The notes under the pieces are model-generated. The model did no database searches. It was not told the origin of the DNA and saw only the letters and a list, made by a program, of their open reading frames with translations. From IMG/VR virus record IMGVR_UViG_3300033571_024432, positions 32,001 to 96,000 of that record: DNA of 64,000 nt; one strand, 5' to 3'. The position numbers and the translations under genes are program-made. The DNA is from a virus. The stretch's first letter is position 1. The number at the start of each line of letters is the position of its first letter. Below, in pieces: positions 5,833 to 59,971 of this stretch.

Positions 5833-6039
5833 GTGATAATCATGAATCAAAATCAAATATTATTAAATATATTTAATCGTTTATTGGCAGAATCAGATTT
5901 AAATGAATTTTCTGCTTTAGGTGGTGGTGCAATCACAGGTTTTAGCTCACCTGCGCCATATATTATCGATAAAAAAAATCGAGTTAGAAAAAAAAGAAGA
6001 AAAAAATTATCTGAAATTGATTTCAACAAAGAGATGTAA
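5833..6039 (+). CDS. Small basic protein with LxE leader (candidate internal head protein)
   Basis: RLLAES-DLNEFS leader, Gly-rich GGGAITGFSSP, and basic tail KKNRVRKKRRKK. Confidence 0.55.
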   Translation: MIIMNQNQILLNIFNRLLAESDLNEFSALGGGAITGFSSPAPYIIDKKNRVRKKRRKKLSEIDFNKEM

Positions 6040-6041
6040 AA

Positions 6042-6254
6042 ATGCAAGAAAAAGATAAATCAAATCCACAACATTATAAAAATAAAGTATCTCCAATAGA
6101 TATAATTGAAATGTATGATTTGAATTTTAGTTTAGGAAATGTAATTAAATATGTATTGAGGGCTGGTAAGAAAGATGGTGAAAGTGATTATGATGATTTA
6201 AGTAAAGCTTTATGGTACTTAAATAGGGAAATAGATCGATTGAATTTAAAATAA
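6042..6254 (+). CDS. DUF3310-like protein
   Basis: NPQHY...IDIIE...FSLGNVIKYVLRAGKK...DLSKALWYLNREI is the characteristic DUF3310 pattern. Confidence 0.8.
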   Translation: MQEKDKSNPQHYKNKVSPIDIIEMYDLNFSLGNVIKYVLRAGKKDGESDYDDLSKALWYLNREIDRLNLK

Positions 6255-6357
6255 TAATATATAATATTAAAATGAATATTATATGAGTTTATTAAAAAAG
6301 TGTAATATTATTATGATATTAACAAAGATTCATATGAGTCAAAAGAAAGAGAATAAA

Positions 6358-7488
6358 ATGACTAGTTTTAAAAATATTTTAAATAATTTTTTATTTGAAT
6401 CTACAGATAATCCCAAAAGTATTGAAATGGATTTAGATAAAAGATATGAAAATGATATCGAATTAAAAGATATTGAATTTAAATCAAGTCCTGGTTGGTA
6501 TGAATTAGATATGATTATACACGACTTAAAAAAAATAAGTAAAAAAAATTTTATTTCTCCAGACAAAATATCAATTAATGATTTTTTATTAAGTAAAGGT
6601 TATAATCTATTAGGTAGTGGAGCTTATAGAGACGTTTATTCTATGAGTAATTGTCCATGGGTAATAAAAGTTGATAAATCACTTAGGGGTAATTATAATA
6701 CTAGGGAATTAAATATTTATTTTTATAAAAAAATGGGAACAGGAACATTAGGTTTATATCCTAAAATATATGCATGGGATAATACTGTAAATAAATTACG
6801 TGGTAAATTGATAAAAGATGATCAAAGTCCTGTTAGATGGATTATATTTGAAAAAGTAGTACCAATTAAAACCGTTTCAACTTTAAAAAGTATTTTTAAA
6901 CCTTTTTATAGAGATTTAGACTTATATTTAAATGAATTAATCAAAATAGGATTAGCTGAACATTCTATTTTTGATTATATTAATGATGATCCTGAATATG
7001 AAAAAGCTGCAGGATATACAACAGAAGATATGAATACAATGAATTGGTGGAAATTAATTTATGATAATTTATTACAATTAAAGAAATTCAGAAGAGTTTC
7101 AATTCGTAATATGAAAAAACATTTTACTGATCCTTCTTTATATAATCTTTCTCAAAAAGAAAATGAATTATTTTTCTCAAAAGGCAAAGTTAATGATACA
7201 AATATTAATACAACTTTTTTAAAATTTTTATTTAAGCAGATTCATCAAAGATATATCGAATCAGATGTGTTAGAAAGAAAATTTGTTAATATATCTTTTA
7301 AAATCTGCGATGATCTAGGTATTTTTAAATCATTTTCTCCTGACGTAGCTTATATTTATAAAGACTTTGCGAATGATATGTGGGAAGATATGCATATTAA
7401 AAATCTTGGTTATAGACCTCATATTTTAGAAAAATCATTAAATTCATGGGAATCTCTAGCATTTTTGGATTTTGCTGAGGATTATTAA
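6358..7488 (+). CDS. Atypical protein-kinase-like protein 1 with LxE leader
   Basis: G-loop LLGSGAYRDVY, VIK lysine, hinge IIFEKV, catalytic loop DMHIKNLGYR and LDF. The likely start is MTSFKNILNNFLFES at 6358; the ORF track starts at 6283. Confidence 0.75.
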   Translation: MTSFKNILNNFLFESTDNPKSIEMDLDKRYENDIELKDIEFKSSPGWYELDMIIHDLKKISKKNFISPDKISINDFLLSKGYNLLGSGAYRDVYSMSNCPWVIKVDKSLRGNYNTRELNIYFYKKMGTGTLGLYPKIYAWDNTVNKLRGKLIKDDQSPVRWIIFEKVVPIKTVSTLKSIFKPFYRDLDLYLNELIKIGLAEHSIFDYINDDPEYEKAAGYTTEDMNTMNWWKLIYDNLLQLKKFRRVSIRNMKKHFTDPSLYNLSQKENELFFSKGKVNDTNINTTFLKFLFKQIHQRYIESDVLERKFVNISFKICDDLGIFKSFSPDVAYIYKDFANDMWEDMHIKNLGYRPHILEKSLNSWESLAFLDFAEDY

Positions 7489-7520: not shown

Positions 7521-8357
7521 ATGGAAATATTAAGAAAATATATCAATTTATTATTTGAATCATCTGGAAATTATAATATTGATAATGAAAAAGAATTATT
7601 TGAAACAATTAAAGCATTAAAAGAAAATAAAATGAGATATACAATCGAATATTCAAATTTTATTTCAGATGTTTTAGGATTTGATTTAATTGGACAAGGT
7701 GAAACAAGAACAGTTTATTCTAAACCTGGATTAAATTTTGTAATAAAAACAGGTGATAGAGAAAATTTAAGAGAAATTAGACACATTTTAAAATATAATT
7801 TAATTAATTTACCAAAACTATATGCATATGATGAAGATAAAGGTTATTGGATGATAGTAGAAAAAGTAGAGCTATTTAAAAAAGTAGATTCTGAATTTGA
7901 TCATACTGACTTCAATTCTAACGTATTTTTACAAATATTTCCAACTGCAAATGAACTTATAAATATAATAGAGGAGTTAATTCAAAAAGGTTTATTAGAC
8001 GAAAAAATATATGAAGGTTATTCTGAATATTATTATTTATCTTTTAATGAAAAATATTATTTAACTTACGATATTATACAAAAAACAATTGATGAATATA
8101 GCGTATCTTTATTTGAAAGCTTTCTATATTACTGTGAAGATTATTTTATTAATGTAGATTCAGAACAAATAGATAATATCAAATCAAAAATATCCAATAT
8201 TGTTACATCAGATATTGATTATTTAAAAAGTGTATTGAATAATACACAAATTATAGATATTCATATTGACAATATTGGATATAGAAAAAACGAAGAAAAC
8301 AAATATACAATTAAAGATCTAATTATCTTAGATACTGCTGGTATTCAACACACATAA
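7521..8357 (+). CDS. Atypical protein-kinase-like protein 2 with LxE leader
   Basis: LIGQGETRTVY, VIK, MIVEKV, DIHIDNIGYR and ILDT. Leader MEILRKYINLLFES. Confidence 0.75.
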   Translation: MEILRKYINLLFESSGNYNIDNEKELFETIKALKENKMRYTIEYSNFISDVLGFDLIGQGETRTVYSKPGLNFVIKTGDRENLREIRHILKYNLINLPKLYAYDEDKGYWMIVEKVELFKKVDSEFDHTDFNSNVFLQIFPTANELINIIEELIQKGLLDEKIYEGYSEYYYLSFNEKYYLTYDIIQKTIDEYSVSLFESFLYYCEDYFINVDSEQIDNIKSKISNIVTSDIDYLKSVLNNTQIIDIHIDNIGYRKNEENKYTIKDLIILDTAGIQHT

Positions 8358-8452
8358 AAAAATTAAAAAAACAACCCACCACCATCTAATACGTGGACAA
8401 AATAATATATAAATATAAAATTATAATAATTAATAACAAAAAAGGTTTATAA

Positions 8453-17115: not shown

Positions 17116-17160
17116 TGAAATTCACTCAGCCATAATTCTATATAAAAAAAAGGAAAACAA

Positions 17161-17922: not shown

Positions 17923-18013
17923 AATAAAGAAAATTGAAAATACACAAGCTGTATACGATATTAAAGTAGAAAATAATCAAAATTTCTTTGCAAATAATAT
18001 GTTAATTCATAAT
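17912..18013 (+). mobile_element. Split intein, C-half (34 aa)
   Basis: IKIKKI...VYDIKVENNQNFFANNMLIHN followed by Cys+1 at 18014. Confidence 0.9.
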
Positions 18014-20777: not shown

Positions 20778-22418
20778 ATGATATTAAATGAAAAAAAATT
20801 AAATGAAATAATAAAAAAAGTTTTAAAGGAATCTAGATTTATTTTTGGTGATTATAAAGACGATCAAGGAAATTCTACAGATTTAAAAGCTGTTAATATA
20901 TCAAAAAAGTTGGGGAAACAATCAAACCCGCATGAAAGATGGACAAATCAGGATGAAAGAGAACAAATAATTGATGAAGTATATTCATTGGCAGGTCCAG
21001 ATGTATTTATTTCTTTTGTTGATCCATTTGAAAAAGGTGCAGATGGTTATTTAGCATCGCCTGCATTTAGTTTAAACCCGAATGCTACTTTTAATACACC
21101 TCATGGTATATATGCTTATCCTTTTGATAAAAACGATGCACAAAGATTTATAGAGACAGGTTCACCTACACCTTCTCCATTTGCTACAGGACGTAAATAT
21201 TTTCATTTAATGAGAATTGATTTAGCAAATCCAAATATAATTGTTTTTAATAAAGATGGAACATGTAATAGAAATATTAGTAATCAAGAATACGAGGCAA
21301 ATATCGACGAAATGATTAGAATGCATTATTTGTTTTTTAAAGATGAAATAATGAATTGTGTAATGAAATATGATCGTGAATATTGGCCACGTGGTGTTAA
21401 TAAGCAAACAGATAAAAATAAAAATGTTAAAATTGTTATTGATGAATATTATTTTAAAGATTCTAAAAAAGAAGAATTACAGAAATTTTTGAATAGTTTA
21501 AGATCTTCAACTAGAAGCATGTATATTGATAATAATTATTATAGACTTTATAAAGCAGCATACCATTTATCAAAAAATAAATATATGGGTGATTCATCAT
21601 CAGATGTAAATATTGATGCCAACTTAAATGTTAAATTTTCAAAAACAAGAGAGGTAAATTCTGAATTTTTTACATTGTTATTGAATAGGATTGGTATAAA
21701 GTGTGTTATCGATAAAGGAACAGGGGCAATACACCCAAATGAGCCAAGTCAAGTACATATTTTAACATTAGCAGATGATTCTTCTTATTATGAATATCTA
21801 GGTACATATCATAATAATTTAACAGCATCAGATGAATTGTTTTATTATTTCTTAAAAAATAATTTATCTGTTAATAAAAAATTTATTGCAATTGATAAAG
21901 ATAAAAAAATATTTGTTTGTGATATTACAAATGCTGAGGCAAAATTGGTAACATCAGTAGAACAATATATGGTTGAACACCCTGAGGATTTTGGACATCA
22001 TAAAATTAATAATGATGTTGATGTTGATGTTGATGTTGAAAATGAATATTCTAATGATCCTGATGTTATTCCATTAATAGATGAATGGGATGATGAAGAT
22101 TATGAAGATTATATTGAAACTTTCGGAATAAAGCCTACAAGAATGACAAAAAATCTAGAAAAAAAGTTCAAAAAAGAAAATTATCAAGAATTATATACAT
22201 TTTTTACTACAGAATTAGGATATCCACCAATTTTTATACCAGTCGATTGGAAAGAAATATCAAGCAAATTAAAAGTACCTTTATTGGTTTCTTTTGAGAA
22301 AAAAGTTAAAATATCTGCAATTTCAGGGTTAACATTTTTATTGAAAAAAATAGCTAAAAAATATTTTGGATATGAAAAAGTTTCGAACTCTTCTGATTCA
22401 AATGATGATGATTTTTAA
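20778..22418 (+). CDS. TPHGIY/HxNEPxQ family protein 1 (putative ADP-ribosyltransferase-like fold) with LxE leader
   Basis: GPDVFISFVDP, NATFNTPHGIYAYPFD and CVIDKGTGAIHPNEPSQ. Leader MILNEKKLNEIIKKVLKES. The paralogy is certain; the function is inferred. Confidence 0.55.
   Translation: MILNEKKLNEIIKKVLKESRFIFGDYKDDQGNSTDLKAVNISKKLGKQSNPHERWTNQDEREQIIDEVYSLAGPDVFISFVDPFEKGADGYLASPAFSLNPNATFNTPHGIYAYPFDKNDAQRFIETGSPTPSPFATGRKYFHLMRIDLANPNIIVFNKDGTCNRNISNQEYEANIDEMIRMHYLFFKDEIMNCVMKYDREYWPRGVNKQTDKNKNVKIVIDEYYFKDSKKEELQKFLNSLRSSTRSMYIDNNYYRLYKAAYHLSKNKYMGDSSSDVNIDANLNVKFSKTREVNSEFFTLLLNRIGIKCVIDKGTGAIHPNEPSQVHILTLADDSSYYEYLGTYHNNLTASDELFYYFLKNNLSVNKKFIAIDKDKKIFVCDITNAEAKLVTSVEQYMVEHPEDFGHHKINNDVDVDVDVENEYSNDPDVIPLIDEWDDEDYEDYIETFGIKPTRMTKNLEKKFKKENYQELYTFFTTELGYPPIFIPVDWKEISSKLKVPLLVSFEKKVKISAISGLTFLLKKIAKKYFGYEKVSNSSDSNDDDF
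21081..21129 (+). repeat. 49-nt perfect repeat, copy 1 (copy 2 at 22795-22843)
   Basis: AATGCTACTTTTAATACACCTCATGGTATATATGCTTATCCTTTTGATA is identical in both paralogues. Confidence 0.85.
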
Positions 22419-22461
22419 TTTTATTTAATATATATATATTAAAAAAAGTATATATTAAATT

Positions 22462-24294
22462 ATGATATTAACTAGAAACAAATTAAATAAAATAATAAAA
22501 AATAATTTAAAAGAAACCAGATTTATTTTCGGTGATTATGAAGAAGAAGATGTTGATTCTAATGATAAAAATTTAAAAAAATCAACAGGATTATCAGCAA
22601 AAAATATGTCTAAAAATATAGGTTCAAAATTAAATTTCATGAAATTTAATTCTAATGAAGAATCTAAAGAATTTATAAAAAATATCGCAGGACCTGATAC
22701 TTTTATTTCTTTTATAGACCCTTATGAAAAAGAAGACGCTGATTCTGATGATTCTGAATCTGCGATGAAGGTTCCGTCATTTAGTTTAAATCCAAATGCT
22801 ACTTTTAATACACCTCATGGTATATATGCTTATCCTTTTGATACTAAACACTGTGAAAAATTTATTATAACAGGACAACCTACAAATGCTGAATTTGCTA
22901 TTGCAAGACCTTATTTTCATTTAATTAGAATTGATTTAAATCACCCAAATGTAATTAGTTTTAATGCAGATGGTAGTAGTAATAAAAGTATAAATAGAAA
23001 TAAATATTTAAAAGAACTTAATGAACTTATAAGAGTTCATTGTAAATATTATAATAAAGATGAAAATGAAAAAGAAAATATTTCAGAATCAATTAATGAA
23101 AGGCTTAAAGAATCAATACATTTTCAATTAAGAGATCTAGGGATGAGTAATGATGAAAAATTTGACAAATTAAAAGAAAAATTTTTAAATAATCATTATT
23201 ATAAATTATATAAAGCAGCTTTTTATTTATGCTTTGAAAATGTTTTAAGAAAGTCATATGGATCTGAAGAAAAAAATTCAGAACTATATGCATTATTATT
23301 AAATGTAATTGGTATGAAATGTATTGTTGATAATAATACAGGTACAATACACGAAAATGAACCAACGCAAATGCACATTTTGACATTTGGCGAAAATGAT
23401 TCTTTTTATGAATACGTAGGTACATTTAAAAATAATATAAAAGCAAATGAAAAAGAATTATCAGATTATATTTCAAATTTAAAGTATACAGATATTGTAA
23501 AATTTTATTCAAAATTAGACGGTAGCAAATGTTTTGATAAAAATCTAATTGATACTATTTTTAATTTATATAAAAATGATGATGATATAATGTCATTGTT
23601 TGTAAAATTAATTTATGAAAAATTAATGACATTTTGTTTCGATACAGAAGAAAGAATAGATATTATTAATAAAATAATATCACAAGACTTTGTTAATTGG
23701 TTAGAAACTTCTGTAGTAAGTGCTAGTGGTATGAAAAATATAAAAAAATGGTTAGGTATAAACGAAGAAAATATATCAAACAAGTATACTTCTTTAAAAG
23801 ACTGGATATCATTATTTAAAGAAAAAAGTAAAAGTCAAATTACATTTTTATTACACGAACATGTATTAAACAAATTTGATGGTCTAGAAATATTAATAGC
23901 AGCAAGAAATATAGATTTAAAAACATTTTGTTTATTATATGAAATAATAATGTATGAACATGAATTTAATAAAAAAATAACCGAACAAGATAATGCAACA
24001 AAAACTTTCCTGCTTAATACATTAAGTAATATTGATATAGATATATTTAAAAATATAATTAAAGCAACAGATATCGATTTATTTAAAGAACAAAATACTA
24101 TAGAAATGTTTATAAATAAAAACATTAATGATCTAAAAAGAATTGATATATTTTTTAATTATATTTCAAATTCTTTACCTCATATGGAAGATAAAATTAA
24201 GCAATATATAAAAAATAAAGTTAAAAATAAAAATGAATCATTAAAAAAATTAAAAGCGTTAATTAGATATGAATTAAAAAATATATTACATTAA
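22462..24294 (+). CDS. TPHGIY/HxNEPxQ family protein 2 with LxE leader
   Basis: GPDTFISFIDP, TPHGIYAYPFD and CIVDNNTGTIHENEPTQ. Leader IIKNNLKET. Confidence 0.55.
   Translation: MILTRNKLNKIIKNNLKETRFIFGDYEEEDVDSNDKNLKKSTGLSAKNMSKNIGSKLNFMKFNSNEESKEFIKNIAGPDTFISFIDPYEKEDADSDDSESAMKVPSFSLNPNATFNTPHGIYAYPFDTKHCEKFIITGQPTNAEFAIARPYFHLIRIDLNHPNVISFNADGSSNKSINRNKYLKELNELIRVHCKYYNKDENEKENISESINERLKESIHFQLRDLGMSNDEKFDKLKEKFLNNHYYKLYKAAFYLCFENVLRKSYGSEEKNSELYALLLNVIGMKCIVDNNTGTIHENEPTQMHILTFGENDSFYEYVGTFKNNIKANEKELSDYISNLKYTDIVKFYSKLDGSKCFDKNLIDTIFNLYKNDDDIMSLFVKLIYEKLMTFCFDTEERIDIINKIISQDFVNWLETSVVSASGMKNIKKWLGINEENISNKYTSLKDWISLFKEKSKSQITFLLHEHVLNKFDGLEILIAARNIDLKTFCLLYEIIMYEHEFNKKITEQDNATKTFLLNTLSNIDIDIFKNIIKATDIDLFKEQNTIEMFINKNINDLKRIDIFFNYISNSLPHMEDKIKQYIKNKVKNKNESLKKLKALIRYELKNILH
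22795..22843 (+). repeat. 49-nt perfect repeat, copy 2
   Basis: Identical to 21081-21129. Confidence 0.85.
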
Positions 24295-43531: not shown

Positions 43532-44464
43532 ATGAAAGAAAAAACAATAAGATTATATATAAAAAATTTATTAGAATCTAAATTTTTAGCAATGGCTTCA
43601 GATGACTTAAATGCAGATAATATTAGTCGTTTTTTTAATCAAAGATTAAATTTTATAGATATAAAAAATGTAAATGATTTAAAAGATTATTTAATAGATA
43701 TTTCTGGACCTGATGTTTTTATTTCATTTACAAACCCATGGAATCAAAATATTCCTACTTTTTCAATAAATCCTATAGCAAAGTTTGGAACTCCACACGG
43801 AATATATTTTTATCCCTTTGATATAAAAAATGCTATTAAATTTATAAATGAAGGTAAACCTACAAATGCTAATTTTGCAATCAGAAATGATTATTTTCAT
43901 TTGTTAAAAGTAGATTTAAATCATCCAAGTGTATTGATATTAAATCAAGATGAAACAGTAAATAGAAAAGATTTATCAATTATTGAATTTAAAATATGTT
44001 TAAATGAAATAATAAGAATATGTAAAGAATACTCAAATATTGAAATAAATAAAAATGAATTATTTTTTGAATTAAAAAAATATAATAAACAATATAACAA
44101 TTTTTATATAAAATTATATCAAATATGTGGTATAATATCAAAAAAAGTATCATTAAAAAATAATTCTGAATTATTTGGTTTATTATTAAATAGTTTGAAT
44201 ATAAAGTGTGTAATTGATCGTGGTTTAGGTGTAATACATCATAATGAACCTAATCAAATGCATATTTTACAATATGATGATAATGATAGTTTTTATGAAT
44301 ATATTGGCACTTTTAAAAATTTAATTAAAGATTACGTTTATTTTGAAGACAGAACTATTGCACAACCTAAAAAAGATTTTCAAAATATAAACAATTTATT
44401 AAAACAAAAATCATTAAATATCGATGATGTTATGAATAATCCTAATTTTAAAATTAATAATTAA
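43532..44464 (+). CDS. TPHGIY/HxNEPxQ family protein 4 (minimal core) with LxE leader
   Basis: SGPDVFISF, KFGTPHGIYFYPFD and CVIDRGLGVIHHNEPNQ. Leader IRLYIKNLLES. Confidence 0.55.
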   Translation: MKEKTIRLYIKNLLESKFLAMASDDLNADNISRFFNQRLNFIDIKNVNDLKDYLIDISGPDVFISFTNPWNQNIPTFSINPIAKFGTPHGIYFYPFDIKNAIKFINEGKPTNANFAIRNDYFHLLKVDLNHPSVLILNQDETVNRKDLSIIEFKICLNEIIRICKEYSNIEINKNELFFELKKYNKQYNNFYIKLYQICGIISKKVSLKNNSELFGLLLNSLNIKCVIDRGLGVIHHNEPNQMHILQYDDNDSFYEYIGTFKNLIKDYVYFEDRTIAQPKKDFQNINNLLKQKSLNIDDVMNNPNFKINN

Positions 44465-44544
44465 TATTACATACGTGAATATTTAAAATTTTTTATTTAA
44501 AATTTTTTTATAACTACAAAATTTAATAATATTAAAAGAGTAAA

Positions 44545-46593: not shown

Positions 46594-47097
46594 ATGTTTC
46601 AATTGAATGAAAATAGTATGAAACGTATTATGCGTGAGGAATATTTTAAAAGATTAAAACATTTTTTACAAGAAGAAATGTCTATAATGTATAAAAATGG
46701 TTCAAATGAAATAGATGTATTGTCAGATGCTTCAAAATTAAAAGTAAGAAATGATAAAAGTGGTTTAGAATATACTGTTTTAAAATTTGATAAAGCTAAT
46801 AAAAAGGTTGTATTATTATGTCCTGAATTTTCTAGATTTGATTCTAGTTATAAACCTAAATCAACAAAAAAATTAACTGAGGTTGATTTTGATAATGATG
46901 GTGTTGATGATTTAAGTATTAAATTAAACAAAATAGATAGTTTATTAGACGATGAAGATGAAAAAGATTCTAGAAAAACAACGAATGATAAAATAAAATT
47001 AATGGATTTTAATAAAGATGATGATTCAAGCATATCTAAAAATAAAGATTATATTATCGTTGATTTAGATGAATTTATTAAAGAATATAGTTTATAA
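46594..47097 (+). CDS. Hypothetical protein with LxE leader
   Basis: MFQLNENSMKRIMREEYFKRLKHFLQEE. Confidence 0.6.
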   Translation: MFQLNENSMKRIMREEYFKRLKHFLQEEMSIMYKNGSNEIDVLSDASKLKVRNDKSGLEYTVLKFDKANKKVVLLCPEFSRFDSSYKPKSTKKLTEVDFDNDGVDDLSIKLNKIDSLLDDEDEKDSRKTTNDKIKLMDFNKDDDSSISKNKDYIIVDLDEFIKEYSL

Positions 47098-47108: not shown

Positions 47109-47840
47109 ATGTTTGATAAAAAATTAGAAAATTTAGTTAAACAAAGCGTTATTAAAACAATGAATGAAAATAACGTTTTATTAAAAAATAGTAATATTAA
47201 AAATGAAAATGAAAAAAAATTAAATGAAGCATATGTTGCACAACCAACAAACTTTAATTTAAATACTGAATTGTTATCAGAAAAAACAAAAATAGCCCAT
47301 CAGGAATTATTTGAAGGTTATATAAAAGAATTAAATACTGTTTCTGCAAAATTAGATACAGCTGATCGTGAAAATGTTAATCCAAATAATAGTCAATTTC
47401 GTTCTTTAAAATTAGATGAAATACATAATCATAATGCTTCATTTTTACACGGTTTATATTTTCAAAATATAAGCGATGTAAATAGTGAAATAACAGCAGA
47501 TAGTTTAGCATTTATGAGAATTGAAAGGGATTTTGGAAGTTTTGATTTGTGGCAAGAAGATTTTATTGCTTGTTGTATGTCTTCAAGAAATGGTTGGGCT
47601 ATGACTGTATATAGTTCAACATTAAAAAGATATATTAATACTATAGTAGATTTACATGATCAACATGTTTTAATAAGTTCTTTTCCTGTAATTGTTATGG
47701 ATTGTTGGGAACATAGTTATTATAGAGATTATTTAAAAAATAGAAAAGCCTATGTATATGGTATGATGAAAGAATTAAATTGGAATGTCATTGAAGAACG
47801 TTTCAAAATAGCAGATAAAATAGGAGCTTTAATTAAATGA
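47109..47840 (+). CDS. Fe/Mn superoxide dismutase-like protein with N-terminal LxE extension
   Basis: AHQELFEGY, LHGLYF, DFGSFDLW, SRNGW and DCWEHSYYRDY. The extension ends KKLNEA. Confidence 0.85.
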   Translation: MFDKKLENLVKQSVIKTMNENNVLLKNSNIKNENEKKLNEAYVAQPTNFNLNTELLSEKTKIAHQELFEGYIKELNTVSAKLDTADRENVNPNNSQFRSLKLDEIHNHNASFLHGLYFQNISDVNSEITADSLAFMRIERDFGSFDLWQEDFIACCMSSRNGWAMTVYSSTLKRYINTIVDLHDQHVLISSFPVIVMDCWEHSYYRDYLKNRKAYVYGMMKELNWNVIEERFKIADKIGALIK

Positions 47841-48877
47841 TCAAAAGAAATAATTTAAATTATATTGAAAAACTTTTATTAGAAAAAAAACTGCCTAGTT
47901 TAAAAATTTTATTAGAAGACGAAGAAAAACAATCAAAAACTAAAGAATCAAAACCTGCAGAAAATAAATCTTCAAGTACTGATTCATCAAGGCAAAGTAG
48001 TTCTGGTGATAGTGCGGCTGCAGATAATAACACGGGTGGTGATACAGGAGGTACTGGTGGTGGGTTAGATGATTTATTTGCAGATTCAGGAAGTGGTGGA
48101 GATACAGGCGACGGTGAAGAAGGTGGTGGAGATGTAGGTGGTGGAGATATTTTTGCAGGTGGAGGTGGTGATCCAAATGCGCAACAAGACATTAGTCAAC
48201 AGTCTGCTGATCCTGAAAAGGAAAAGGATGAAAAGGAAAAGAAAATTAAAAAAGGTCTTAAATTAGCTGCAGATACATTATATGATGTGTCTAGCGGAGG
48301 CTTTGACCCAAATATAAGTCATCAAATTACTCAGAATTTATTTGATATTAAAAATGAATCAAGATTTTACAATAAAAATAAAAAGAAGTTAATTGAAAAT
48401 ATTAGCAAATTTTTATTTAAAAATGTAAAAGATTATGATATTAAAAAATATAAAAAATTATCATTAAAAGATAAAAGTTTTTATTTAAACGAAAAAAAAT
48501 TATTAAGAATGAATAAAATTTTATTAGAAAATGAAACTGACGATATTATAGGTGATAAATTTTGGCAAGAAAATGCACCAATTGATGCTATTGTAAATAA
48601 TGCTGTTGAATTGACGAATAATTTTATAGATAAAGTTGATATACCATCATTAATTATAAATTCTGTATCTATTAAATTTGGTAAAATGGCAGGCGAAGAG
48701 CAAGAAGAAAATAAAAATGCGCCAAATGAATATAAGCAAAAATTGGCAGATTTTATTCAAAAATATACATCAGCATTAAAAAATATACCTGATTATAAAA
48801 ATTATCCTACAGATAAATTTGCAGTTAATTCAAATATTCCTGATATTCAAGCAGTTGGTGCTTCAAATAGTCAATAA
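47837..48877 (+). CDS. Hypothetical protein with LxE leaders and Gly/Asp-rich linker
   Basis: KLLLEK, ILLED and internal ILLEN; GGDTGGTGGGLDDLF... region. Confidence 0.65.
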   Translation: MIKRNNLNYIEKLLLEKKLPSLKILLEDEEKQSKTKESKPAENKSSSTDSSRQSSSGDSAAADNNTGGDTGGTGGGLDDLFADSGSGGDTGDGEEGGGDVGGGDIFAGGGGDPNAQQDISQQSADPEKEKDEKEKKIKKGLKLAADTLYDVSSGGFDPNISHQITQNLFDIKNESRFYNKNKKKLIENISKFLFKNVKDYDIKKYKKLSLKDKSFYLNEKKLLRMNKILLENETDDIIGDKFWQENAPIDAIVNNAVELTNNFIDKVDIPSLIINSVSIKFGKMAGEEQEENKNAPNEYKQKLADFIQKYTSALKNIPDYKNYPTDKFAVNSNIPDIQAVGASNSQ

Positions 48878-48916: not shown

Positions 48917-49345
48917 ATGAAAGATAACAATAAAAATAAAGGATTGTCAATTCAAACAGAGGCTGAAAAATTTGGTATTGCTCAAAAATATATTATGCGA
49001 GTTAGTACAACTCATCCTCAAATGAGATTTTTTAAATCTTTATTGGTTTTAAGAGATTTAACAACACAAGATTTTTTTCATACATTTTTTAGATTAGTAA
49101 TGGATGAAGATGAAAAAATAGTTGGTTTAATTGAAGAAGCTTATAAAATGAAAAAAGACAAGAGCATATCTAGATTAGTAAATCATGATAAGGAAAATAT
49201 ATATGAGCTTATTGAAAAACATTCTCCAATTGATCCAGGAGGAATTGGAGAAACAGAGTATAATGAATCAGAGTGGGGACCAAAAAATTATAAACAAAGA
49301 CTTAGAGTCAACAGAGAAATATGTTCAAGAGACTCAGACGAATGA
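48917..49345 (+). CDS. Hypothetical protein (possible small DNA-binding protein)
   Basis: 142-aa ORF whose 3' end overlaps the next ORF. Confidence 0.55.
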   Translation: MKDNNKNKGLSIQTEAEKFGIAQKYIMRVSTTHPQMRFFKSLLVLRDLTTQDFFHTFFRLVMDEDEKIVGLIEEAYKMKKDKSISRLVNHDKENIYELIEKHSPIDPGGIGETEYNESEWGPKNYKQRLRVNREICSRDSDE

Positions 49346-49733: not shown

Positions 49734-50228
49734 ATGAAAATTAATCTAAATGAAAAAACAGTTAGAGCCTTAGCAAGAAATATTTTATTTGAATCAAATG
49801 AAAAAATAAATTTGCACGAAATGAGTTTATCTCCTGATAAAACAGGTGGAGGTAATAGTAATATTAATACTACTGCTAATAATCAAAAAGCAGATATTTT
49901 CAAAAAAGGGCCAAAAACTTCATCAATAAAAAAACAAAAAGAATACGGCGAAAAAGAATTTGAAGTCGATGATGAATTACCTATTAATGACAAAAAATAT
50001 GGAGGTAATATTTCTTATGAAATGTCACCAAATTTTTATGAAACATCAGAAGGTGATGTTGAAAATTATTTAGATAATGACGATTTTTATCCTCCAAAAG
50101 CAACATTACCAACTGTTATGACAAAAATTGGTAAAGAAATTGGTAAAGAAGTTAAAGATAGTAATGTTAAAAAATATTATGATGAATTAAAATCTTTAAG
50201 CAAAAAATATTTAAAGGATAATAAATAA
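49734..50228 (+). CDS. Hypothetical protein with LxE leader
   Basis: MKINLNEKTVRALARNILFES...LHEMS. Confidence 0.65.
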   Translation: MKINLNEKTVRALARNILFESNEKINLHEMSLSPDKTGGGNSNINTTANNQKADIFKKGPKTSSIKKQKEYGEKEFEVDDELPINDKKYGGNISYEMSPNFYETSEGDVENYLDNDDFYPPKATLPTVMTKIGKEIGKEVKDSNVKKYYDELKSLSKKYLKDNK

Positions 50229-50229: not shown

Positions 50230-53200
50230 ATGTTAAATAAAAAAATAATAAATTTCTTAATAGAATCTATAAACGATGATGATGATGATTTCGAAATTAA
50301 TAAAGAAGAATTAGGGAAATATAGAAGTGAAATTTCATTAGTAGGTAAATCAAAATTTCTTAAATTAAAAAAACACAAAAAAAAATATTATAAAAGTGGA
50401 TTATTTACGAAAGATTTCCAAGATGCTTTAAAAGACGCGGCAGATAGAGCACAGGAAAGTACTGAACGTGGTCAAATGTCAGATGAAGAATTTGAATTAC
50501 ATAAGAAGTCTTTAGCTAAAGATGTATCAAAGGCACAATTAGAAATTGAAAATAATAAATTATTTTATTATATAGCATGGTTAAAAGGTAATTATTTTTG
50601 GAAAAATTTATATATTAAATATTTAGATGCATGTGTAAAAAATTCTCAATCATATGAAAGAAATAAAAAATTTGATAAAAATAAAAGAGCGCTTGCAGAC
50701 AAAGATGATGAAGAAAATCCAACAGGTAAAGTTTTAGATTGGACTGCATCTGACTATATTGATTATGCTGTTCCTAGAAAAACAGAAGAATCTGTTAAAG
50801 AATGGAATAGCTTTCAAGCTGCTTTTATAAAAGAATTAATAACTTTATTATATAAAGATGTTTCACAAGCTGATTATGATAGAATGTTAAATTTTAAAAA
50901 TATTAAATCAACAAACGATTCTTTTAAAGAAAAAACTTTTTCAAATTGGGTAATGAAAGATAATACAGCTATTGAGGATTATTATCTTGAAAAAAATAAA
51001 GATAAAAACTTAATGGATTATAATTTTGAGGCTGCTAATAAATTATTAGCAGATATGTCTGGTATTGATATATCAACAGGTGAATTTGATTCAAAAAATA
51101 TTACTAGCGAAGATTTGGATGAAATAAAAGAATCATTTATTAATAATCCTTATGATCAAATAGAATTTGAAATAAAAAAAGAAAATGAAAGACAATCTGA
51201 TTTTGAAAATGAAACAAATGAATATAATGAATTAATGTCTACAAATAATAGATTATCTAATAATGAAGATGATAATTTATCGTATGATGATCAAGTGGCA
51301 TTTAAGCAAAACAAAATGGATTCAGATTTTTATGATTTATCATTTAATAATAATCAAAATAAATTATCAATTGAAGAAAAAATTAAAAATTTTAATAAAA
51401 ACAAGGAAAGAGAATTAAAAAATTTAATCGATAATATTAGATATCCATCAAATATTCAAGGTTCAAGAAAAGATGAATTTTTAAATAATAGAATAAAAGC
51501 TTTTGAACAAAAGAAAGAAATAGAATATCAACAATTAATAAATTCAGAAAATGATATTAATGTAAGAATAGACAATTTTAATAAAAAGCAAGACGCTGAT
51601 TTACAAAGAATAATTGCTGATTTAAATGATACATTTTCAAATGAAACTGAAGAATTTCGTGAAAAAATAGTCGCTGATGAAATTAAAAATTTTGAAAAAG
51701 AAAAAGAAAGAAAATTTAAAGCATTATTCTCTTCAAAATTATTGTCAGATGAAGAAAATATGAAAATGCGTGCAGAAGATTTTGAACAATCAAATGAAAT
51801 GTTAGATAAAATAAAAAATGGAGATGATTCAAATGTATATATTAGCGATTCAGAAAAGGTAATTGAATATATTGCTGCATATAATGAATTAGACAAAATG
51901 ATAAATAGCGAGCAATTTTTACCTGAAAATTTAAATAAATACGCTTCTGAATTTGAAAATATTAATAATAATGAATTTGAAGAAATAGAAGATATTCAAG
52001 ATGAAAATAATGAAAAAATTTCTTCAAGGGAAATAATAAATAATGTTTTATCTAGAAAAGATAATCCAAAAAATATTGATAGATTGGAAGATATTTTTTA
52101 TATATATGCTTTATTAAAAGCTGATATTGCAATGATTACAGAACGTTTATCTAAACAAAAAAATGTTAAATATAAATATGGTGATATTACTAAAAAAATG
52201 GATGCTGCGTTAAAAGAGGTAGTAACGCAAGTATATAAAATGATTAATAATATACAATCATCTAATCCTATTGCAACAAATAAACTGGCAATGATTGCAA
52301 GAAATATAGATCAATATAGAAATAAATTAAACAATCCTAAAAAAGATAAATTTTGGACTTTACCAGTAATGGTTACTGCAGCGGGAGGTTTATATGCAAT
52401 TGATACAACTGGAAAAAATATAGCAACATCTGGTTTACAAAGATCAATGGCTGAAATGCTTATGCAAGCAACATGGGCACAATCAATGTTAAAACAGAAC
52501 AAAATAGCAGAATTACGTATTATATCAATGCAATCATGGTTAGATGATCTTGATTTAAATTATAATTTATCTTTGGGTTATGAAGAAAAATATAAAGAAG
52601 GTATAACATTACAAGAAAAATTAAAACAATTAGTCTCTCAATTAAGTGATTCTGAAAAAAAGAAAATTAAACCAAGAACGCAAGATGTCGTAAGAAAAGA
52701 ATATAAAAAAATTGCTGTTGATAATTTAAATATAGATCCTTTATATACTAAATTAACAGATAAATATTATGAATATGAAGAAAAAATTGAAGATTTAATT
52801 GAAGAGATGGATATCATGGGTGGTTCTGAATTAACCAGTATTCGTGAATTAAAAATACAATTAAATTATTTTACAGAAAAATATGAAAAAACAAAGCAAC
52901 AAATGTCTAAAATTGAATATCAATTTGAAAGATTAGCAAAGAATGAATATTTTTCTGAACGTGAAGAAAAGAAAAAACAAATGTCTGATGAAATAATTAA
53001 TCAGATTGAAAAAATACAAGATGAAATTTATGAATTAGATTCATGGAATAAAAAATCATATATAAAAGCTGGTACAGTTAAAGGTGTTAAACAATATGAT
53101 AAAAAAGACTTTGATAGTTTTATAGATAATGATATTAGAAAAGATAAAACATTAACACCTGAATATATTTTAAATCAAGCAAAGGTAGCAGATTATAATC

Positions 53201-55031: not shown

Positions 55032-55790
55032 ATGAATATATCAAAATTTATTTCATTATTAGAAAGATCAATTAAAGAGGGTGATGTAACAGCTAATGAA
55101 AAAAAACAACAACAATCAATTGATTTAGAAATATCTCCAAGTTTAAAAGCACCTAAAAAACAAAATAAAAACCAAGATAATAATAAAAAAAACGATAAAA
55201 ATCAAAATAAAAAAAATAATAATCAATTAGATGATGAAGAAGTTTCTGAGGATCAAGATTCTCCATATGACGCATTTGAAAAATCTGTAAAGAAAAATGA
55301 TTCACAAGACGAAGATTATGAAGAATTAGATGATACAGAAGATATTGATGAAGATGATGAAGAAAAAAGAGAAAAAAAAGAAAGATCAGGATTTAAATTA
55401 TCAAATGCAAAACAATACACTTATTTTAAAGATTTAGTAAATAAATTCAGAGCAGCTGAAAGTATTAATAAAAGTAATGCAGCTGAAAAATTTTATAATA
55501 AATTAACATTAGGCGAAAAGCAAACAATTTGTTTATTTTTTGATTCAATGACAAAAGTTTTAAATGCAAATACAGATGCAGATTTTAAAATGCCTAAGAC
55601 ACCTTTACAACATGGTATTAAAATAAAAGAAAAGGTTTCTTCTAACGAAGAACATATGAAAACAATTTCAGCTGCAGCTTCAGGTGACAAAAAAGCTGAA
55701 AAGAAAATGTCTTCAATGGCTCCTATCACAGTAGGTGAATCAATAAAAAGATTTACATCAATAGATAATTTATTAAAAGAAGTAAAATAA
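55032..55790 (+). CDS. Hypothetical protein with LxE leader and acidic linker
   Basis: ISLLERSIKEG; D/E-rich middle section. Confidence 0.65.
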   Translation: MNISKFISLLERSIKEGDVTANEKKQQQSIDLEISPSLKAPKKQNKNQDNNKKNDKNQNKKNNNQLDDEEVSEDQDSPYDAFEKSVKKNDSQDEDYEELDDTEDIDEDDEEKREKKERSGFKLSNAKQYTYFKDLVNKFRAAESINKSNAAEKFYNKLTLGEKQTICLFFDSMTKVLNANTDADFKMPKTPLQHGIKIKEKVSSNEEHMKTISAAASGDKKAEKKMSSMAPITVGESIKRFTSIDNLLKEVK

Positions 55791-55791: not shown

Positions 55792-56067
55792 ATGGAACCA
55801 GTACATTTATATGTTAATCAAATTTTATTAGAAAGCTTTCGAAAAAATATTGATCATGAACATTATATCAGTATTAATGGTGAAAGATTAAAATTTGGAA
55901 GTAAAAAATGTATTCAAGATCTTGAATATAGAATTGGCGATGCTGTAAGGGTTAGAGATAGCTATCAAGCAAGAACAGACGGACGTGTATACTTCTCAGG
56001 TATTTTAAGAATACTACGTAGAGAACTACAAACTGCTAAAAAGATATACCAGAATTTACCAGTTTAA
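55792..56067 (+). CDS. Conserved hypothetical protein
   Basis: QILLES leader; FGSKKCIQDLE..I...RD. Confidence 0.65.
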   Translation: MEPVHLYVNQILLESFRKNIDHEHYISINGERLKFGSKKCIQDLEYRIGDAVRVRDSYQARTDGRVYFSGILRILRRELQTAKKIYQNLPV

Positions 56068-56745: not shown

Positions 56746-56746
56746 T

Positions 56747-59233
56747 ATGCATAATCAATATAAATTAATTATAAAAAATAATATGAAAATATTGAAGGAA
56801 GATGCCTCACAATATTCTGTTGGAGATTTAAAAGCATTTGTTACAGATATTTATCAAATTGTTTCGAAAACTACAGAAGCAACAATTAGAAATTTTAGTG
56901 CTCAATTAGAATATGTCATATTAGCAACAAAAATTATTGGTTTTGCAGATATGAAAGCATTAAATGAAGACTTTGAAGAAAAATTAAAAAAATCTGCAGA
57001 ATTATATGATGCAGCAATTCCTGATAAAATTAAGGATGATGTTGATACTTTATTAAAATTTTCAAATCCAGGTGCATTTATGTTACAAAAAGCAACTAGC
57101 GCATTATCTGAAAAAGATGGTATATTATCAGCAACACCTTTTTATAAATTTGCTAAAAGTTTAATATCAGGTGATTTTTTTAAAACAAGTGTTGAAAATT
57201 GGGGTAAAGAAGGATTATTTGGTTTACAATTTAATAATATTATTTGGTATAATGGTTTTGTGAGAAAAGAATTATTATATGATAATGTAAAATATTTACA
57301 AAAATATATTGACAGAGGAGGTTTAACAGGCACTTCTTTACAAATAACAGATATGAATGATTTAAGAACAAAAATGCCACTTATTTGGTATGGTATTAAA
57401 TCTGCAGATGTTTATGAAATATATAACAGAGGAACATTTACTTTTTATGATTTTTGTAAAAATTCTAATGATACAATGTTAACATATTTAGGCCGAGAAA
57501 TGCAACATAGATCAAATCCAGAACCTGAACAAGGTACTCCTGAATGGGATGTTTGGGATAGACAACAAACAGCATTAAAAAAAGATCAAGAAATCATTTT
57601 AAATGATTTTATGACAAGATGTAATCAAAATTTATCACATTTAAATAATACTATACCTGATGCATATCGTTTAATTATGGATGAAGAATTTGAAGTATCT
57701 GACGCATTTATGATGGTATTAGGAGCTACAAATGTTGTTGATGATATTGTTGAAGATACAACATTTATACCTTCTGCTATTTCAAATTTTGCTACAGCAT
57801 CAACTAGCCCTTTTGTCACAATTGGTAGTTGGTTAGGTATAAATCCGCCTGCTGAACCTGGACAAATAAATGGATTTATACAACAAGTATTAAATATACT
57901 TGATAATGCTTTTATAATTAATGAATCAAATGTAGCTAAATCTAAATTAATATTAAGAGGAAATAAAAAAATATTATTAGAAAATGATATGCAAGAAAAA
58001 TCTAATAATAAAAAAAAGCCAATACAATTTTTAGATGAACAAAATGAAATGATTAATGAATTAATACCTGATTCTGATAAAAGTAAAAAGTTAAAAGATT
58101 GGAAAGAATTTATATTAAGAGTAAAAGCTATTAAACCAGGTGAAAATAAAAATAAAAAAAATAAGTTAATTCTAGAAATGATGGAATATTCTTTACAATT
58201 TTTTGATCAGGTATTTGATGAGTTAAAAGGAAAATTAAAATTAATAGAAGATGAATCAAACGAGTATACTCAAAACTTTAATAATAAAATTGAAAAAAAA
58301 TTTGGATTTGAAATGACGCCAAAGGGTTTTGCGACAAAACAAAATTTTGATTTTGAATTAATTTGTGAAAATAGCAGATTAACAAGTATATCACATATCA
58401 TGAATATAGAAATAATTTTAGAAGAATTGAATATATTAAAAAATTTATTAATGAATATTGAAAAAAGTGAAAATAAAAATATTAATTTATTAATAAATGA
58501 ATTTAAAAATAAATTGATGCAAAAAGAAAAAATTATTAATGATAATGCAACATTAAAAAAGTTTAATACGATACATTCACAAATTAAAAAAGAATTTGGA
58601 GAAAAATCTAAAACTTTGGAAAATTTTGAAAATAATTTAAAAAAATCAAGAGAAAGTTTTAATAATTTAAAAAAGAAATCAATTCAATTTTGTGATAATA
58701 TAATACAAATAGTACAAAAAAGATCAGAAATTCAAAATGAATCAGAAATTATTAATTTATTAAAAAGTATTATTAAAAACATCGAAGACAATTCAAAGTC
58801 AATGAATGAAAAATTATATTCTAAGTTATTACCAGATTTAGAAAAAAATAAAAATTATTTCGAAAAAGATTTAAAAAAAATGAAAAATGATTTAAATCAA
58901 AAATTTGGAAAAATTTGTGAAAAAATAAATCTTGAATCTTTTGATAAAATATACAATGAAAATATACAGAAATTTTATTATGCATATAATGAATGTATAA
59001 AAATATTGAAAAAAATTGATTCTAAAAATATATTGAAAGATATATTACAAAATTTAAATAAAAAAATATCTAATCACGATATTAATTTAGATAAAAACGA
59101 AAAAGATCAATTAATAAATCAAAAAGATATAAACAATAAAGATGATGTTAAAGACAATGATGAAGCTGTTTTATCGATATCAAATGATGAAAAGTCTTTA
59201 ACACCAATTAAAGTAAAAAATAAAGAAGAATAA
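56747..59233 (+). CDS. Large protein with N-terminal and internal LxE sites and a coiled-coil C-terminus
   Basis: MKILKED; internal FIINES and KKILLEN. Confidence 0.65.
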   Translation: MHNQYKLIIKNNMKILKEDASQYSVGDLKAFVTDIYQIVSKTTEATIRNFSAQLEYVILATKIIGFADMKALNEDFEEKLKKSAELYDAAIPDKIKDDVDTLLKFSNPGAFMLQKATSALSEKDGILSATPFYKFAKSLISGDFFKTSVENWGKEGLFGLQFNNIIWYNGFVRKELLYDNVKYLQKYIDRGGLTGTSLQITDMNDLRTKMPLIWYGIKSADVYEIYNRGTFTFYDFCKNSNDTMLTYLGREMQHRSNPEPEQGTPEWDVWDRQQTALKKDQEIILNDFMTRCNQNLSHLNNTIPDAYRLIMDEEFEVSDAFMMVLGATNVVDDIVEDTTFIPSAISNFATASTSPFVTIGSWLGINPPAEPGQINGFIQQVLNILDNAFIINESNVAKSKLILRGNKKILLENDMQEKSNNKKKPIQFLDEQNEMINELIPDSDKSKKLKDWKEFILRVKAIKPGENKNKKNKLILEMMEYSLQFFDQVFDELKGKLKLIEDESNEYTQNFNNKIEKKFGFEMTPKGFATKQNFDFELICENSRLTSISHIMNIEIILEELNILKNLLMNIEKSENKNINLLINEFKNKLMQKEKIINDNATLKKFNTIHSQIKKEFGEKSKTLENFENNLKKSRESFNNLKKKSIQFCDNIIQIVQKRSEIQNESEIINLLKSIIKNIEDNSKSMNEKLYSKLLPDLEKNKNYFEKDLKKMKNDLNQKFGKICEKINLESFDKIYNENIQKFYYAYNECIKILKKIDSKNILKDILQNLNKKISNHDINLDKNEKDQLINQKDINNKDDVKDNDEAVLSISNDEKSLTPIKVKNKEE

Positions 59234-59242
59234 GGTATTAAT

Positions 59243-59644
59243 ATGTCAAATACAAAATGGATTCCAAATATATATTATGAAGAAAATAAAGATGGTATTA
59301 CTGGTGGATTGCCATTTATAGACGTTCCATATGGACGTAGTATGCCAGGATGTTTATTTATTTGTGAGGCTAAGGATTATAAGGATTTATCCCAAGAAAC
59401 AAAAGATAACTTGGATTTAGAGCATCTTGAAAAAGAAATAGTTGTTCATTCTTACGCTAATATGACAATATTAAAACAAAAATTATCTCCTGAACTTTTT
59501 GATGATGTTAGACTTGCGATTGGTTTACAACCGTTACAAACTGCTTTATTAGAAGGCGCAAAAAAAACATACGAAATTCAAAAAAACATAGATCAAATGA
59601 TAAATAAGATTAATGATAAAAACTCATTACAGAAAGAGGAATAA
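59243..59644 (+). CDS. Conserved hypothetical protein
   Basis: WIPNIYYEE...GGLPFIDVP.G..MPG.LF. Confidence 0.65.
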   Translation: MSNTKWIPNIYYEENKDGITGGLPFIDVPYGRSMPGCLFICEAKDYKDLSQETKDNLDLEHLEKEIVVHSYANMTILKQKLSPELFDDVRLAIGLQPLQTALLEGAKKTYEIQKNIDQMINKINDKNSLQKEE

Positions 59645-59971
59645 ATGAGCAAGCAAAGAATTCAAAAATCACGTTTAATGGAACTTTCAGGTTTCAATAA
59701 AGGACGCGAACCCTTATTAATTACAGAATCAGGACCTGTATATGCATATGATCTAGCAGAAATGATTCAACAAGAAATTAGAAATGTTTTAAATGAAATG
59801 AAATTAAAAAATTTCCAAAGTGATATTATTACAGCACAAAATACAAAATCTGTATCAGCTGCAATGGGTTTTGTAGGACCAGGTTTTTCATCATATAATA
59901 ATATTGCTGGAAATAGAATATTTAAAGGTGCTGGCGGAACAAGAAGTATGTTAGGGCCAGGCTTTAGATAA
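59645..59971 (+). CDS. Small protein with multiple LxE sites and Gly-rich tail
   Basis: RLMELSG, LLITES and VLNE; MGFVGPGF...MLGPGFR. Confidence 0.6.
   Translation: MSKQRIQKSRLMELSGFNKGREPLLITESGPVYAYDLAEMIQQEIRNVLNEMKLKNFQSDIITAQNTKSVSAAMGFVGPGFSSYNNIAGNRIFKGAGGTRSMLGPGFR

Follow-up and report, generated by a model that had tools for sequence, protein, structure and literature searches.

The 116,707-bp linear contig IMGVR_UViG_3300033571_024432, recorded in IMG/VR, stems from an uncultured, very AT-rich jumbo phage with kinship to T4. We analyzed a window of 64,000 nucleotides from this contig (its bases 32001-96000), in which a short N-terminal peptide, hereafter referred to as the leader, recurs at the beginning of many open reading frames (ORFs). 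The contig has a GC content of 25%, encodes 130 proteins, and has a completeness of 44% according to CheckV. Clear Pfam matches mark the genes for replication and nucleotide metabolism (gp32, RecA, DnaB, dUTPase, NrdB, ThyX, DnaE, TK, dCMP deaminase, and GroEL), and the contig encodes a T4-type contractile tail with a gp15-like sheath stabiliser, sheath paralogues, a gp19-like tube protein, and a T4-type baseplate hub. For comparison, we used among others a relative with a complete genome, G012 (239,550 bp, terminal repeats, 29% GC), one of the closer relatives with low GC that were reached via a superoxide dismutase (SOD)-like gene of the window; 65 of the 130 contig proteins are common to both phages, with a median identity of 45%.

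Between positions 5833 and 59971 of the window, we counted 24 leader-bearing ORFs, two of which (49185 and 59645) are weak candidates. The original prediction had put this number at about 25, and all 20 leader strings that it gave as examples are present at the respective ORF starts. About 11 additional leaders are found elsewhere on the contig, so that approximately 35 of its 130 genes, about a quarter, are leader-tagged. The leader is an amphipathic stretch of 11-40 residues that ends with hydrophobic-x-Glu and is followed by a small residue. Its Glu is located at residues 11-23 in 21 of the 24 ORFs, the exceptions being the SOD-like protein (residue 40), ORF 47837 (residue 27), and ORF 59645 (residue 28). 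The leader-bearing ORFs of the window are given below with the coordinates of their leaders; an arrow (↓) marks the point directly after the leader Glu, h stands for a hydrophobic residue, and aa for amino acids.

5833..5892, plus strand: leader of a 68-aa ORF, (V/M)IIMNQNQILLNIFNRLLAE↓SD; matches h-x-x-h-h-x-E
6358..6399, plus strand: leader of kinase-like paralogue 1, MTSFKNILNNFLFE↓ST; its start is an internal ATG of ORF 6283-7488
7521..7559, plus strand: leader of kinase-like paralogue 2, MEILRKYINLLFE↓SS; kept in the orthologues P0005 and P0006
8453..8491, plus strand: leader of kinase-like paralogue 3, MLYLRKYIKLLFE↓SS
20778..20831, plus strand: leader of a TPHGIY-family protein of 546 aa, MILNEKKLNEIIKKVLKE↓SR
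22462..22515, plus strand: leader of a TPHGIY-family protein of 610 aa, MILTRNKLNKIIKNNLKE↓TR
25692..25760, minus strand: double leader of a 489-aa orphan, MSDIKIINE↓SQIKKIIIEKILKE↓LN; no Pfam or PHROG match
27223..27282, minus strand: double leader of a 468-aa orphan, MLKRINE↓SVIRKIIKTKLIE↓NY
27387..27431, plus strand: leader of a 149-aa protein, MIYVRVEDLYSLIRE↓SI; the G012 orthologue begins MNDLILLENLIKELVLIE
29905..29961, plus strand: leader of a 573-aa protein with HELEH at residue 233, (V/M)LISDESLLRKYINNLIFE↓GF
34658..34690, minus strand: leader of a 144-aa protein, MNYKLKELLFE↓NK
39486..39530, plus strand: leader of a 908-aa TPHGIY-family protein, MSLNILKNYIKMISE↓GS; separated from the conserved domain by about 190 additional residues
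43415..43471, minus strand: leader of a 420-aa orphan, (L/M)IIKLADFKKIIRENILFE↓TK
43532..43576, plus strand: leader of a 310-aa TPHGIY-family protein, MKEKTIRLYIKNLLE↓SK; residues 2-16 are a low-confidence helix in the AF2 model, followed by a linker
46594..46641, plus strand: leader of a 167-aa conserved small protein directly upstream of the SOD-like gene, MFQLNENSMKRIMREE↓YF
47109..47228, plus strand: putative 40-residue propeptide of the SOD-like protein, consisting of an amphipathic leader, a variable spacer, and KKLNE↓AY
47837..47917, plus strand: leader of a 346-aa acidic protein, MIKRNNLNYIEKLLLE↓KKLPSLKILLE↓DE; PSL.ILLEE is conserved across relatives
49185..49244, plus strand: weak candidate leader, MIRKIYMSLLKNILQLIQEE↓LE; the ORF overlaps ORF 48917-49345
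49734..49793, plus strand: leader of a 164-aa protein, MKINLNEKTVRALARNILFE↓SN; orthologues in five relatives keep (I/L)LFE↓N
50230..50265, plus strand: leader of a 1269-aa orphan, MLNKKIINFLIE↓SI, then an acidic run
55032..55079, plus strand: leader of a 252-aa protein, MNISKFISLLE↓RSIKE↓GD
55792..55833, plus strand: leader of a 91-aa protein, MEPVHLYVNQILLE↓SF
56747..56800, plus strand: leader of an 828-aa orphan, MHNQYKLIIKNNMKILKE↓DA
59645..59728, plus strand: weak candidate leader of a 108-aa protein, MSKQRIQKSRLME↓LSG...LLITE↓SG

The residue P1 is Glu in all 24 leaders, P3 is L, I, or M in 23 of them (N in ORF 6358) and never S, A, or G, and P1' is S, G, T, N, or A in 19. The bare [ILM]-x-E motif is common in this proteome and, taken alone, unconvincing: it occurs 2.77 times per 100 aa in N-terminal sequences compared to 1.58 times in internal ones, a 1.75-fold enrichment. 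The extended pattern, in contrast, is distinctive. The ending h-x-x-h-h-x-E was found 34 times within the first 30 residues of 28 of the 130 proteins, which is 3.3 times the internal rate. Hydrophobic residues are more frequent at N-terminal h-x-E sites than at internal ones, both at P4 (0.52 versus 0.33, p=2e-4) and at P7 (0.51 versus 0.38, p=0.012), and the N-terminal sites possess more basic residues at P5/P6 and more small residues at P1'.

We also compared the N-termini independently of any motif, scoring ungapped BLOSUM62 matches between 25-mers of the 82 proteins with 150 aa or more and leaving out paralogue pairs. At a score of at least 35, this comparison returned 23 N-terminal pairs, but only 1 and 2 pairs in two internal controls and 1 pair in a C-terminal control. 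With a leave-one-out position weight matrix (PWM), 15 N-termini outscored every one of approximately 30,000 internal windows. The same pattern count gave 18 occurrences versus 6.1 expected in 60 kb of T4, our positive control, and 11 versus 10.8 expected in 100 kb of the Staphylococcus phage K (30.6% GC), a negative control that lacks a T4-type protease. These data bear out the enrichment over internal sequence, and the claim that leaders are absent from core replication genes held for gp32, RecA, DnaB, NrdB, ThyX, DnaE, TK, dCMP deaminase, and GroEL. The carriers had been described as unrelated; this is true for most of them, but 7 of the 24 belong to two paralogue families, one kinase-like (6358, 7521, 8453) and one defined by the TPHGIY domain (20778, 22462, 39486, 43532). 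Two procedures were discarded along the way: an expectation-maximization motif search of width 18, which over-fitted to generic amphipathic or low-complexity sequence and was replaced by the leave-one-out PWM and the motif-free pairwise comparison, and a loose regular expression with only 24 matches versus 13 expected, in place of which the tightened pattern was used. Most of the starts are preceded by an AGG/GGA resembling a ribosome-binding site 6-12 nt upstream, and codon choice varies between the leaders; since their codons differ, conservation is at the level of the peptide and not that of a repeated DNA cassette.

A peptide of similar design is well studied in T4. The prohead protease gp21 cleaves after L/I-X-E, the first 10 residues of the internal protein IPIII are sufficient for packaging, and within these, residues 4 and 7 serve in targeting and residues 8 and 10 in processing (PMC9026906). 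The capsid-targeting sequence (CTS) is carried by IPI, IPII, IPIII, Alt, and gp24 and is removed from them by gp21 (Mullaney and Black 1996, as cited in PMC9026906, PMC3012670, and PMC5694885), and in the otherwise diverse internal proteins of the T-even phages the CTS alone is conserved (PMC3012670). Among the cargo that T4 delivers are the enzyme Alt and IPI, an anti-restriction protein (PMC3012670; PMC9026906). In the T4 record, ipII and ipIII begin with MKTYQEFIAE↓A, in agreement with the IPIII sequence given in the original prediction; ipI begins with MKTFKEF...ITE↓A, gp24 with MAKINELLRE↓S, and alt with MELITE↓L, and gp23 contains FLTE↓AEIGG, gp22 contains MLKEQLIAE↓A and SIFES, and gp67 contains NFLIEG. 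Residues 4, 7, 8, and 10 of IPIII correspond to P7, P4, P3, and P1. Of these, P3 and P1 are set by the h-x-E motif as such; the enrichment that we measured outside this motif falls on P7 and P4. In T4, an Asp at residue 10 blocks processing and leaves targeting intact.

In both systems, an N-terminal leader of 10-20 residues ends with L/I-x-E in front of a small residue and possesses hydrophobic residues at P7, P4, and P3, so that KTYQEFIAE↓A of T4 can be aligned directly with RKYINLLFE↓S of the window; in both, the carriers are mostly unrelated, fast-evolving proteins whose genes are scattered over the genome. The differences are those of scale and type. T4 has a handful of tagged genes, whereas we counted about 24 in the 64 kb of the window and about 35 among the 130 of the contig; the leaders are often longer or doubled; and the predicted cargo reaches 1269 aa and includes enzyme-like families unknown from T4.

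A second group of jumbo phages offers a comparison as well. In phiKZ, 201phi2-1, and SPN3US, approximately 50 head proteins are present, many of which are processed by a gp21-like protease and ejected. The phage studied here resembles these giants in that it is predicted to package many proteins into the head, enzymes among them, and in predicted cleavage after Glu within propeptides that may hold several sites. However, the cleavage motif of phiKZ-type phages is S/A/G-x-E (PMC5694885; PMC9026906), and most of their propeptides exceed 100 residues and do not share a short leader (PMC5694885); the leaders described here, with a length of 11-40 residues and a hydrophobic P3 in 23 of 24 cases, are set apart from that type.

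The original prediction called for a gp21-like prohead protease. We did not find one on the 44%-complete contig, but relatives possess it. Among five sheath-based relatives searched (contigs of 140-324 kb), four carry a Peptidase_S77 protease, and the same four carry a gp23-type capsid protein above the family cut-off. Overall, the protease was found in G001, G002, G003, G005, G011, and the complete G012; G004, which is also 44% complete, was the sole exception among the larger relatives searched. The five closest sheath relatives, represented by short contigs throughout, likewise lacked Peptidase_S77 and Gp23. The S77 protease occurs on more than 510 IMG/VR contigs, with 76-95% identity among the 80 best matches listed. 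In the head module of this clade, the genes for the terminase, the portal, a 277-aa protein, the S77 protease, a protein of about 135 aa, and two core proteins of about 140 and 91 aa are followed by those for two proteins of about 180 aa, the scaffold, and the capsid. T4 is a distant relative only: its sheath and capsid families are recognisable, and the N-terminal region of the capsid protein is approximately 30% identical to that of T4 gp23. When the capsid proteins of the clade were aligned to T4 gp23, the L and E of the LTE65 cleavage site proved to be invariant (QVLRE↓SS in G012). Like T4, the clade possesses a gp21-family protease (S77), and its gp23-type capsid protein has L-x-E where T4 gp23 is cleaved.

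Leader-like sequences are also found on head proteins of the relatives. The two small core proteins begin with MAK(I/V)S+xxLK.IVKECLVEIL.EGL and ..LTPxLL+KIVLEE, respectively, and the scaffold of G012 contains RLFES. In Flavobacterium phage immuto 2-6A, a cultured distant relative, small head-module proteins begin with MKKSQIVKAVQEVLEE, MENNFDIHKWQAKFLKES, and MRTLQEKYNAIQEGKFSKEHFIAEA, KFLKES being among the leader sequences of this module, and the gp23 cleavage position of the capsid protein is occupied by QIVSE↓AN. A PWM built from the head-core leaders of other phages alone placed 15 N-terminal sites of our contig among its top 50, compared to 4.6 expected, which provides modest but independent support.

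Conservation of the leader was traced in orthologues of the SOD-like protein. The assignment of ORF 47109-47840 as SOD-like is supported by a match to PF02777 (Sod_Fe_C; E=1.5e-20, 73.5 bits versus a cut-off of 20.9), and the match to PF00081 (Sod_Fe_N) is weak (16.3 bits versus a cut-off of 27). The gene is part of a block (TK, dCMP deaminase, small leader protein, SOD-like protein, acidic leader protein) that we found at 24 related loci with GC contents of 25-49%. All 22 distinct SOD-like orthologues possess an N-terminal extension of 22-48 residues that is variable in length and sequence, always opens with an amphipathic leader, and in 22 of 22 cases ends with [LIVF]-x-E-[A/S/N], with about nine residues left to the SOD core. 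Such an arrangement would be expected of a propeptide boundary at which a gp21-type enzyme cuts. In relatives with 44-49% GC, the leaders are retained with R in place of K. The C-terminal domain of the SOD-like protein is 27% identical to a protein of the Pseudomonas jumbo phage PA5oct and its relatives, annotated as sodB in some records.

The TPHGIY family provides a second large sample. Its four paralogues in the window (two at 20778-24294, one each at 39486-42212 and 43532-44464) share the domain signature F.SF...NP.S.Y.TP.GIY.YP ... IH.NEP.Q. At E<=1e-3, a search of 1.84 billion representatives returned 632 clusters; the family matched neither Pfam nor PHROG models, and among phage records the only matches were to uncultured 735-kb phage records and none to a cultured phage. 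Leaders of this kind extend across the family: the strict leader pattern is present within the first 30 residues in 77 of the 149 best representatives, compared to 7.8% expected, and many more leaders can be recognized by eye. Different lineages use their own dialects of the leader (LL.NYI+.YLKE↓AT, ILKEW+.F.NE↓MS, and MNFKEFLNE↓ARRNP, the last of which closely resembles T4 IPII), and distant members begin with MNFKEFLNEARRNP, which is also similar to IPII. In the 908-aa paralogue, the leader remains at the extreme N-terminus despite the insertion in front of the domain. The AF2 model of the 310-aa protein has a pLDDT (predicted local distance difference test) score of 67. Over its full domain, this model matched only ParT (Z 5.2), MbcT (4.8), VPA0770 (4.6), PARP catalytic domains (about 4), and a pre-ejectosome chain of cyanophage A4 (Z 5.3, Foldseek E=2e-3), all within the background range. 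The ADP-ribosyltransferase-like (ART-like) label given to this family in the original prediction, corresponding to a NAD-using toxin fold of the RES-ParT-MbcT type, is weakly suggested by these models and is a lead, not a finding.

The SOD-like protein was the one enzyme on the predicted cargo list for which we obtained a firm match. For the kinase-like family (6358, 7521, 8453, and L001:1949), the aligned sequences have the kinase-style elements G.G..R.VY, a Lys, D.H..N.GYR, and LD in common; a profile search of PDB sequences was empty, Pfam gave no match, and the AF2 model is poor (pLDDT 52). In the ESM Atlas, PF27024 (Phage_T7_kinase) occurred in 3 of 30 neighbour clusters, with 17% of the members in the cluster listed. 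The motifs together with this one language-model lead weakly suggest a kinase-like assignment. The presumed metallopeptidase comes down to a single HELEH in ORF 29905, and for the PCD-like protein there was no candidate with any Pfam match; neither label is supported.

Leader proteins match few known families: a Pfam domain was found in 1 of the 30 scanned (the SOD-like protein) compared to 10 of 10 housekeeping proteins. BLASTP matches in G012 exist for 7 of 35 leader proteins but for 58 of 95 non-leader proteins. Since the tagged proteins are poor in Pfam domains and have few matches in G012, we regard them as a fast-turnover accessory class, as described for the T4 internal proteins. Of the seven leader-protein matches in G012, the five outside the kinase-like family also have leader-like N-termini. 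G012 possesses a set of its own, with 50 pattern-bearing proteins versus 22 expected, and in the more distant G001 the enrichment is 1.5-fold.

Taken together, these findings indicate that the shared N-terminal peptide is probably a T4-type CTS joined to a prohead-protease cleavage site. This reading was already part of the original prediction, and the match to the mapped T4 positions, the S77 proteases and the capsid L-x-E of the relatives, the leaders on their head proteins, the 22 SOD-like extensions, and the TPHGIY family now speak in its favor. The leader would form a short amphipathic helix, with P7, P4, and P3 occupied by hydrophobic and P5 and P6 by basic residues, through which a freshly synthesized protein would attach to the scaffolding core while the prohead assembles; the core and scaffold proteins of the clade carry the same helix. 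A gp21-family serine protease, which in this phage would be encoded outside the contig, would then cut after the Glu of hydrophobic-x-Glu and thereby free the mature protein inside the head. That the tagged cargo is delivered into the host together with the DNA as a set of effectors is a more tentative proposal and one about which we are somewhat doubtful.

Several observations weigh against this interpretation. For this phage and its close relatives alike, packaging and cleavage are predictions from sequence. No Peptidase_S77 protease, gp23-type capsid gene, or portal gene is present on the 116.7-kb contig, which is 44% complete; because the protease and the capsid gene are lacking there, we place the head module in the missing part of the genome. 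A contig of 219,129 bp carries proteins identical to those of this phage, and a metagenome scan with the leftmost contig protein returned no match. The tagged share of about a quarter of the genes is far above the handful known from T4, and many of the tagged genes are located among replication genes. The pattern h-x-x-h-h-x-E has a background of about 10 chance matches per 130 proteins, and in a proteome rich in K, N, I, L, and E there are surely false positives among our leader calls; the dUTPase, for instance, has a weak leader look-alike that scored by chance. The mature parts of the tagged proteins are no more basic than other proteins as judged by their isoelectric points. In a late-promoter comparison, TATAAATA was found in G012 upstream of the capsid, scaffold, and other structural genes and of two leader genes; on our contig, the exact sequence precedes 4 of 35 leader genes and 1 of 71 others, and the tail genes, which served as the positive control, gave 0 of 24, a failure of the control that leaves this comparison without weight.

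Among the alternatives, the one that fares best, though we consider it unlikely, is an N-terminal amphipathic helix with a role unrelated to the capsid. It might dock to a shared partner (the phage chaperonin or some host factor), associate with membranes, mediate oligomerisation, or be recognized by a modifying enzyme, in the manner of ribosomally synthesized and post-translationally modified peptides. Helices of this short amphipathic type can serve many purposes, GroEL is encoded by the phage itself, and the tagged genes lie outside any head module on the contig. Such a role, however, leaves unexplained the invariant h-x-E-small ending and its position at a propeptide/domain boundary in the SOD-like family, as well as the presence of the leader on head-core and scaffold proteins and the match to the mapped CTS positions of T4; furthermore, a search of G000, the complete G012, G001, and G011 revealed no radical-SAM gene.

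We hold it to be less probable still that prohead targeting by the leader and its cleavage in the prohead do take place, but that most of its carriers are scaffold or core proteins or assembly helpers, degraded or expelled at maturation rather than injected as effectors. The same leader is indeed present on head-core and scaffold proteins. An acidic run directly follows it in 3 of 32 leader proteins compared to 0 of 80 others, reminiscent of T4 gp67 and gp68, and the best-conserved tagged proteins (the small protein, the SOD-like protein, and the acidic protein) form a clade-wide syntenic block. T4 gp22, gp67, and gp68 likewise combine amphipathic N-termini, L/I-x-E sites, and acidic tracts, with NFLIEG in gp67 and SIFES in gp22 comparable to NFLIES and LLFES here and to RLFES in the G012 scaffold; these T4 proteins, however, are conserved structural components encoded in the head module, whereas the tagged proteins are mostly lineage-specific and encoded outside any such module. 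Most carriers are large (median 315 aa, maximum 1269 aa), enzyme-like, and lineage-specific, which would be unexpected for essential scaffolding, and T4 sets the precedent of Alt and IPI as delivered cargo. Size, enzyme-like character, and turnover favor cargo; for some of the tagged proteins, the acidic tracts and the conservation of the SOD block point to a role as core components.

Finally, an artefact of AT-rich composition or of paralogue inflation, to which the internal [ILM]-x-E rate of 1.6 per 100 aa, the 7 of 24 leaders from two paralogue families, and the drift of the first motif run to generic low-complexity matches might have pointed, is largely refuted and highly improbable, in view of the 23 versus 1-2 pairs that persist with paralogue pairs removed, the lack of enrichment in AT-rich phage K, and the persistence of the leaders at 44-49% GC with K replaced by R and with codons that differ between copies.

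Apart from the leaders, we noted several other features of the contig. A C/A-rich run followed by ATCTAATACGTGGACAAAA is present in three copies (window 8345-8409, corresponding to genome position 40390, and genome positions 1655 and 111210), with a variant at window position 56594; the element abuts the start codon at genome positions 1655 and 111210, lies about 50 nt upstream of gene 8453, and is possibly a regulatory or mobile-element site. Another sequence, ACATACGTGAATA, recurs in intergenic regions (window positions 44473 and 60365; genome positions 102957 and 112156) and probably represents a non-canonical class of promoters. The RecA/UvsX gene is apparently split (window 10698-13007): ORF 10698-11435 matches residues 1-248 of the G001 RecA, and only residues 310-437 of the following ORF, 11571-13007, match the remainder, leaving an insertion of about 300 residues that is perhaps an intein or a homing-endonuclease gene. 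Similarly, a sheath paralogue located to the left of the window (L001:12265-15016, genome coordinates) consists of two ORFs of 670 and 220 aa that jointly match a single G001 gene of 1008 aa; this could reflect a frameshift, a stop codon, or an assembly error. The NrdA region (window 15973-18973) is interrupted by a GIY-YIG-like ORF (17161-17922), and the next ORF begins with an intein-like ...NNMLIHNC, which suggests a mobile element within the ribonucleotide reductase gene.

If our preferred reading of the leader as a CTS with a protease site is correct, the phage possesses a greatly expanded variant of the known T4 system, and the advance is one of scale, cargo types, and predictability, not of mechanism. 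It is conceivable, although we would not put it more strongly, that an abundant, uncultured, T4-related clade of jumbo phages has made the CTS peptide a general address label, attached to about a quarter of the genes here, from which the injected set could be read in the sequence. That set would include the leader-tagged 632-cluster family with its possible NAD-using toxin-like fold, kinase-like enzymes, and the SOD-like protein with its presumed propeptide. Dozens of orphan families, among them the 632-cluster family for which there is no Pfam or PHROG model, would gain a testable cellular context, and the natural leader variants might be of use in protein packaging, for which applications based on the T4 CTS already exist. 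The clade is widespread, as judged by the more than 510 viral contigs carrying its protease, and immuto 2-6A, being cultured, is a possible experimental model. Should the leader work as in T4, the proteins that enter the cell before phage gene expression would be predictable from metagenomic sequence alone; they would likely be first-strike tools for anti-defence and takeover, and would constitute the largest predicted set of co-injected phage proteins, turning over between relatives like the internal proteins of T4.

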